A program made the translations under genes and the position numbers. The notes under the pieces are model-generated. The model was not told the DNA's origin, made no database searches, and was given only the letters and a program-made list of their open reading frames with translations. Of a DNA stretch of 64,000 bases, positions 26,617-26,811 are shown one piece after another; position 1 is the stretch's first letter; the number at the start of each line of letters is the position of its first letter. Location: NCBI RefSeq assembly GCF_055900595.2, contig NZ_CM148325.1. The stretch is one strand, 5' to 3'.

Positions 26617-26661
26617 TATTTATCCCTCTTGCATACACCGTTGTGGGTACAGTCAGGGAAT

Positions 26662-26677
26662 AGCAAGGGGAGTGCCA
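26662..26677 (-). promoter_or_regulatory. Sigma-54 (RpoN) -24/-12 promoter of atoDAEB
   Basis: Minus-strand sequence TGGCAC-tcccc-TTGCT matches the sigma-54 consensus TGGCAC-N5-TTGCW, about 45 nt upstream of the atoD start; consistent with AtoC being an NtrC-family activator. Confidence 0.6.
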
Positions 26678-26759
26678 GAATGAAAATGTTTGATATTGTT
26701 TTTTAACTCATTGAATAGTAAAGAATAAATAAGGTAGGGATTAAGAGGTTGAATGAACG

Positions 26760-26800
26760 GCTATGCAGAAATTTGCGCACTGTGCAAATTTCTGCATAGC
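26760..26800. promoter_or_regulatory. AtoC enhancer-like binding site (perfect 20-bp inverted repeat)
   Basis: gctatgcagaaatttgcgca / c / tgtgcaaatttctgcatagc, a near-perfect palindrome about 100 bp upstream of the sigma-54 promoter, between the atoC stop and atoD. Confidence 0.6.
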
Positions 26801-26811
26801 AAGTTTTGGTG

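Follow-up and report, generated by a model that had tools for sequence, protein, structure and literature searches.

Positions 26617-26811 of the window (the whole 64-kb stretch of DNA that was analysed) form the gap between two minus-strand open reading frames, one of 461 aa at 26812-28197 and one of 220 aa at 25954-26616. This gap is the atoC-atoD intergenic region, and it holds the known and well-studied control region of atoDAEB, the E. coli operon for acetoacetate and short-chain fatty acids. The genes on either side are listed below.

22770-26616, minus strand: atoD-atoA-atoE-atoB operon, all four open reading frames full length (from open reading frames, Pfam and annotation)
26812-28197, minus strand: atoC, sigma-54 enhancer-binding response regulator, 461 aa (from Pfam and NCBIfam)
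28194-30020, minus strand: atoS, sensor histidine kinase (coordinates from the RefSeq annotation of a near-identical genome)

The AtoC protein contains the Pfam domains Response_reg, Sigma54_activat, AAA_lid_14 and HTH_8 and a GAFTGA motif, and scores 999.9 bits against the NCBIfam equivalog NF008469 (cut-off 714). A cognate activator with REC, AAA+ (GAFTGA) and Fis-type HTH domains is thus encoded nearby, as an upstream-activating reading of the region calls for. AtoS has the Pfam domains PAS, HisKA and HATPase_c and exceeds the cut-off of equivalog NF008468 with 988 bits, AtoD is above the cut-off of NF007394, and the atoDAEB products contain two CoA_trans domains, SCFA_trans and Thiolase_N/C. 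The genes atoS, atoC and atoDAEB are all full length.

The window is colinear with E. coli Z0117EC0005, obtained from a dog in South Korea, at 99.6-99.95% identity, and with the K-12-like strain g74 at 96.0% identity (~4.0% divergence over 63 kb), which indicates a divergent E. coli lineage about 4% from K-12. The gene order is inaA-nrdAB-yfaL-ubiG-gyrA-yfaATSQP-atoBEAD-atoCS-rcsC-rcsBD-ompC...nap-ccm-narP-yejO-yejM. At ~9166-9208 the closest complete genome has an IS3-family insertion of ~1.26 kb that splits yfaL, and the window is without it. A tandem array between eco and mqo (45022-45459) consists of 3.9 copies (95% matches) of a 113-bp unit in which REP/BIME-type palindromes, for instance GCCGGATGCGGCGTGA...CGCCTTATCCGAC, occur.

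Of 5426 complete E. coli genomes, 3923 contain a segment of 311 bp around the control region, in each case between atoC and atoD, and the atoC-atoD region had no match in the other 1503 (28%). At least one strain, E. coli CUVM53 (L007), has lost the promoter-proximal region, together with the 5' end of atoD, through a deletion, and its atoD is annotated as a pseudogene.

The atoD promoter and leader

Two features lie next to the atoD start codon.

26662-26677, minus strand: sigma-54 promoter TGGCACtccccTTGCT, exact consensus, with -24 TGGCAC at 26677-26672 and -12 TTGCT at 26666-26662
26617-26654, minus strand: predicted atoD leader, with the conserved block GTACCCACAACGGTGTAT at 26650-26633 and the Shine-Dalgarno sequence GAGGG at 26628-26624

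The GG and GC doublets of TGGCACtccccTTGCT are exactly 10 bp apart within TGGCAC-N5-TTGCW, and the element is the sole exact match to TGGCACNNNNNTTGCW in the window; shuffled sequences gave a mean of 0.06 matches, with a match in 6 of 100 shuffles. The only one-mismatch match elsewhere in the window, at 3480, is antisense inside nrdA by coordinate mapping. The element is unchanged in six aligned E. coli alleles, and it has the orientation, the short distance to atoD and the conservation in orthologous loci that are looked for in a sigma-54 promoter. A genomic SELEX peak of the RpoN holoenzyme has been reported in the atoC/atoD spacer of K-12 (PMC8743547). A consensus scan, which is a weak test, found no sigma-70-like promoter on the atoD strand; its one site was on the opposite strand and was no more than chance would give.

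Transcription of atoD would start near 26650-26654, ~35 nt before the ATG, because the +1 position is usually 11-13 nt from the GC of the -12 element. The leader is almost invariant in Escherichia and Citrobacter. The block GTACCCACAACGGTGTAT starts at about +1 of the predicted transcript and can form a small bulged hairpin, which shows two-sided changes in three of its six pairs and is weak in E. coli (-3.8 kcal/mol, z 0.74). Compensatory changes in this hairpin were seen in Buttiauxella (TCTCC/GGAGA) and Edwardsiella, and the CCC of GTACCCACAACGGTGTAT could alternatively pair with the GGG of the Shine-Dalgarno sequence.

The palindrome and the spacer

The part of the region upstream of the promoter contains an inverted repeat and the AT-rich DNA that separates it from the -24 element.

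26781-26800, minus strand: AtoC half-site 1, distal arm, GCTATGCAGAAATTTGCACA, -184 to -165 from the atoD ATG, identical to the K-12 site
26760-26779, plus strand: AtoC half-site 2, proximal arm, GCTATGCAGAAATTTGCGCA, -163 to -144 from the atoD ATG, 19/20 against K-12
26774-26786, no strand assigned: core dyad TGCRCA-N-TGYGCA at the centre of the palindrome, single occurrence in the window
26678-26759, minus strand: AT-rich 82-bp spacer (looping DNA) from enhancer to promoter, variable in sequence and kept in length
26704-26716, minus strand: candidate IHF core ATTCAATGAGTTA, one mismatch to WATCAANNNNTTR, centred 34.5 bp upstream of the -24 GG (~-59)

The two arms (26760-26779 and 26781-26800) are separated by one base and form the longest and best close-spaced inverted repeat of the window. 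Nineteen of the 20 arm pairs match (95% complementary), and the sole mismatch is G26777/T26783 on the plus strand, or A/C on the atoD strand; 22 of 26 species have a transition mismatch at this pair, in one orientation or the other. The dyad centre is at 26780, at a distance of 104.5 bp from the -24 GG, and a gap of 82 bp (26678-26759) separates the palindrome from TGGCAC. The first-pass annotation had described a near-consensus -24/-12 element at 26662-26677 on the minus strand, about 45 nt upstream of atoD, and a 41-bp perfect inverted repeat at 26760-26800, about 100 bp further upstream. Its promoter coordinates are right, the match being to the exact consensus and unique in 64 kb, and exactly 45 nt lie between T26662, the last base of the promoter, and the A of the ATG (26616). 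The repeat and its coordinates also stand, and the distance is a fair description, but the word perfect does not hold.

In K-12, the AtoC half-sites GCTATGCAGAAATTTGCACA at -184/-165 and GCTATGCAGAAAATTGCGCA at -163/-144 have been verified experimentally (PMC3118216, Table 5), and the 40-bp palindrome is bound by AtoC, leading to sigma-54-dependent expression of atoDAEB; EMSA, ChIP and footprint experiments in the literature identify the sequence as an AtoC site (PMC3118216). Comparison with this mapping, as the first-pass annotation had proposed, gave identities of 20/20 and 19/20 at the same positions, and the window contained two half-site matches where 0.01 were expected from shuffles. The K-12 atoDAEB promoter (Pilalis et al. 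2011, PMC3118216) has the same -24/-12 element, distal half-site, 82-bp spacing and flanking genes. It differs from the window at one base of the proximal half-site (on the atoD strand, AAATTT in the window and AATTTT in K-12), at one base just after the -12 element and at one base 4 nt upstream of the ATG. The variant half-site base makes a T/T mismatch in K-12, and the palindrome of the window is therefore more symmetric than that of K-12. The palindrome is read as the AtoC enhancer, and AtoC probably binds it in the strain of the window.

The spacer has a GC content of 23-37%. It differs from that of K-12 at 22 of 82 positions (27%), with no indel, against a background of 4%, and is the third most divergent 82-bp segment relative to K-12 in 63 kb (top 0.2%); the two segments that are more divergent fall in ompC and yejO by coordinates. 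Among nine Escherichia alleles the spacer is 82 bp long in seven and 81 bp in two. In the six-allele E. coli alignment the -24/-12 element and nearly the whole leader are effectively fixed, as are the palindrome and its flanks with one base change at most, and the 82 bp that separate palindrome from promoter are highly variable. TATTCAATnAGTTAAA is the only conserved island of the spacer, and it is retained in the window. The window-type spacer was found in 17 of 5426 complete E. coli genomes, and K-12-like alleles in ~99% of the ato-positive ones; this census is approximate, as are its identity bands, the query having been the K-12 spacer offset by ~20 nt into the palindrome. The spacer is expected to need length, phase and bendability but little specific sequence, and would therefore drift fast between fixed flanks.

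The peaks of divergence from K-12 elsewhere in the window reach 31/82 near 37829, 26/82 near 60783 and up to 20/82 in 7500-9800, and correspond by coordinate mapping to ompC, yejO and yfaL, which all encode surface-exposed proteins. An origin of the spacer as a recombination patch from another species was considered and rejected, as the whole 63 kb is ~4% off K-12; other species of Escherichia (L009, L010) also have spacers that are no closer.

Three one-mismatch matches to WATCAANNNNTTR occur on the atoD strand of the spacer, and only ATTCAATGAGTTA lies within the conserved island. Chance alone yields many one-mismatch IHF matches (49.5 expected in the window, 62 found). In 25 of the 46 Enterobacterales loci described below, the same strand has an IHF-like match with its centre 33.5-36.5 bp ahead of the GG, and perfect IHF cores are found at 46-58 bp in several distant genera. 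The allele of the window has created an additional IHF-like match at 26683-26695 that adjoins the -24 element. From its position and its retention, the site at 26704-26716 may be where IHF bends the spacer. Matta et al. 2007 reportedly found IHF to be required for atoDAEB induction, and are said to have placed the AtoC sites at -146 to -107 relative to the transcription start; our literature search on atoDAEB together with IHF returned nothing relevant.

Conservation among Enterobacterales

An AtoD scan of one genome per species gave 80 loci, and 46 loci from Enterobacterales were analysed, among them Escherichia, Citrobacter, Raoultella, Edwardsiella, Atlantibacter, Serratia, Buttiauxella, Morganella, Budvicia and Photorhabdus. 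All 46 have a -24/-12 element with one mismatch or none, beginning 56-66 nt ahead of the atoD start codon. A palindrome is located 177-201 nt upstream of the ATG in ~30 loci. The core dyad was searched as TGCRCA-N(1-2)-TGYGCA, and each Enterobacterales locus that has it (45 by this pattern and 46 by a relaxed pattern) contains exactly one copy in 5.6 kb, always 163-217 nt upstream of atoD. It is kept in four loci (L043, L044, L053, L055) that have no atoC homologue in the 2.5 kb upstream, and the element therefore travels with atoD and not with the 3' end of atoC. The TT/AA and G/C pairs that flank the dyad are invariant in 26 species. As read from these alignments, the minimal conserved core attributed to AtoC across Enterobacterales is TTGCRCA-N-TGYGCAA.

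Distances from the dyad to the GG cluster at ~98, 104-107.5, 117.5-120, 127-129, 136.5-141 and 149 bp. A Rayleigh test on the 19 unique distances gave R = 0.60 and p ~5e-4 at a period of 10.5-10.7 bp, a p-value that is indicative only, since related species are treated as independent; on the same distances, periods of 8.5, 9 or 13 bp were not significant. Such phasing would be expected if the enhancer had to stay on one face of the helix, and it supports helical phasing of the enhancer.

Outside the Enterobacterales, good sigma-54-type -24/-12 elements such as TGGCACGGTTCTTGCA were seen 70-80 nt upstream of atoD homologues at five loci (L062-L064, L068 and L080, from Bacillus, Neobacillus, Neisseria and a Bacillota MAG), and most of these have no AtoC-like gene within 2.5 kb upstream. 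Sigma-54 control of this CoA-transferase operon therefore seems widespread, with different activators.

Regulatory model and alternatives

The control region of the window very probably works as an AtoC enhancer that acts on a sigma-54 promoter through DNA looping, which IHF may assist. Acetoacetate would be sensed by AtoS, leading to the phosphorylation of AtoC, as known from the literature, and AtoC~P would then occupy the inverted pair of 20-bp sites at 26760-26800. The AT-rich 82-bp spacer would be folded by an IHF-type bend near 26704-26716, which would allow the AAA+ ring to contact the sigma-54 holoenzyme in its closed complex on TGGCAC-N5-TTGCT (26677-26662), after which ATP hydrolysis would open the promoter for a start near 26650-26654. 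The genes rpoN and ihfAB are outside the window. The AtoC enhancer architecture put forward by the first-pass annotation is borne out by the two arms, which agree in sequence and position with the K-12 half-sites on record except for one base of the second. It had recognised the promoter and the enhancer and had overlooked the likely IHF site between them. Its statement that the sequence confirms induction by acetoacetate or short-chain fatty acids went too far; the intact cis elements and genes are consistent with such induction, and the strain of the window is probably inducible by acetoacetate.

IHF-assisted sigma-54 promoters such as glnAp2/glnHp2 (NtrC), prpBCDE (PrpR) and nifH (NifA) share with this region a dyad enhancer ~100-150 bp upstream, an AT-rich segment with an IHF-like site and a -24/-12 element. 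An activator with REC, AAA+ and Fis-type HTH domains and an enhancer whose placement depends on helical phase are also shared. The binding site differs, being TGCACC-N5-GGTGCA for NtrC and TGCRCA-N-TGYGCA with outer nGnA repeats one turn away for ato, and so does its arrangement, since in ato two 20-bp sites abut into a single 41-bp palindrome in place of two separated sites. PrpR, IHF and RpoN are cited in PMC2965739.

The arms of the palindrome raise a question of their own. In the 26-species alignment, no change is seen in the inner TTGC.CA / TG.GCAA or in a G/C pair that lies a helical turn further out, and the remaining outer arms are swapped in concert between genera (GCTATGCAGAAAT, GCCAGGCAAAGAT, CTGAGAAGGAAT, CCTGACAAAAAT). 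Two-sided changes affect 14 of the 22 arm pairs, and 86% of the cells are still paired; the arm covariation score of 0.305 compares with 0.141 in shuffles, none of 500 reaching 0.305, and with 0.05-0.12 in slid controls. The recognition helix of AtoC, LGISRRALMYKLQEY, is identical in 31 of 31 orthologues. It is conceivable but unlikely that the outer 10-12 bp of each arm are kept for their dyad symmetry itself and not for their base sequence. If it were so, the enhancer might double as an extruded cruciform or an RNA hairpin, or alternatively the arms might be homogenised by quasi-palindrome template switching, which is a known mutational process; and ato, with its variable spacer of fixed length, would be a natural enhancer in which geometry is conserved and most of the sequence is free.

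An RNA hairpin at the 3' end of atoSC (a terminator, a stabiliser or an insulator against read-through into atoDAEB), with selection on complementarity and not on sequence, would be one such explanation of the palindrome, as its main or an additional role. The palindrome begins 11 nt past the atoC stop codon, the sense-strand RNA folds at -26.7 kcal/mol (z -6.85), the arms covary above both sets of controls, and an invariant AtoC helix leaves the changed outer arms unexplained. The long stable stem-loop directly past a stop codon is also shared with intrinsic (Rho-independent) terminators, from which the palindrome differs by an AT-rich stem, the lack of a U-run on the transcribed strand and an apex conserved in sequence. 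There is no U-tract on the atoC/atoD strand, where CGTTCATTCAACC comes after the stem, and the only terminator-like match is on the plus strand, which has no convergent gene. Conservation is strongest at the tip of the stem-loop, a part in which a hairpin does not depend on sequence, and 22 of 26 species keep a mismatch at one inner pair (alignment columns 70/77). Cells that are not Watson-Crick pairs have no strand bias (15 G.U in the sense strand against 10 A.C); a further 22 are transversion mismatches by hand count. The core dyad persists where atoC is not adjacent, Enterobacillus and Leminorella have an adjacent atoC yet weakly palindromic arms, and the published binding data give the sequence to AtoC. 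A scan of 26300-27100 against Rfam found no match above the gathering score; the matches to the palindrome were sub-threshold miRNA precursors (19-24 bits against cut-offs of 50-83) of a kind that any long hairpin gives. Termination as the main function of the palindrome was rejected, given the missing U-tract, the conserved apex and the independence of the dyad from atoC, and an RNA hairpin in any of these roles is quite improbable. Constraint at the DNA level is more likely than an RNA hairpin as the source of the arm covariation, and the arms may represent two equivalent AtoC dimer sites, possibly homogenised by template switching.

Two further explanations concern the region as a whole. 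The control region could be impaired or re-tuned in this lineage, since the spacer, including the flanks of the IHF core, is rare and highly diverged: it occurs in 17 of 5426 genomes, is 22/82 off K-12 (top 0.2% of the window), and carries the extra IHF-like match right beside the -24 element. Against this, the length of the spacer and hence the phase are unchanged, the island TATTCAATnAGTTAAA is kept, all ato genes are intact, other genera tolerate wholly different spacers, and the window is 4% off K-12 overall, so that rarity reflects the lineage and not a local lesion; impairment or re-tuning is accordingly very improbable. The motifs could also be chance matches, and atoD could depend on a sigma-70 promoter or on atoSC read-through for its transcription. 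Nothing specific favours this beyond the fact that consensus matches alone do not prove function, and it is effectively refuted by the numbers expected from shuffles (0.06 exact sigma-54 matches and 0.01 half-site matches, of which two were found), by the conserved positions of promoter and dyad across many genera, by the lack of a sigma-70-like site on the atoD strand in the consensus scan, weak as that test is, and by the published dependence of atoDAEB expression on sigma-54 and AtoC (PMC3118216) and the RpoN SELEX peak (PMC8743547). The preferred reading is thus the AtoC enhancer with a looped spacer and a sigma-54 promoter.

The atoDAEB promoter and the AtoC enhancer are already known, and both are intact and ordinary here. 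Matta et al. 2007 are said to have mapped the promoter and enhancer of atoDAEB in E. coli K-12, and the K-12 elements are listed in regulatory databases. For annotation, the value lies in an intact atoSC-atoDAEB system in a divergent lineage of a species in which 28% of complete genomes lack it. The spacer differs at 22 of 82 positions from that of K-12, where the work was done, and quantitative behaviour could differ. The comparative gain consists of a minimal AtoC core and of support for helical phasing and for an IHF site at ~-59. The results could help those who build acetoacetate biosensors from the atoD promoter, and the comparison shows how freely looping DNA evolves.
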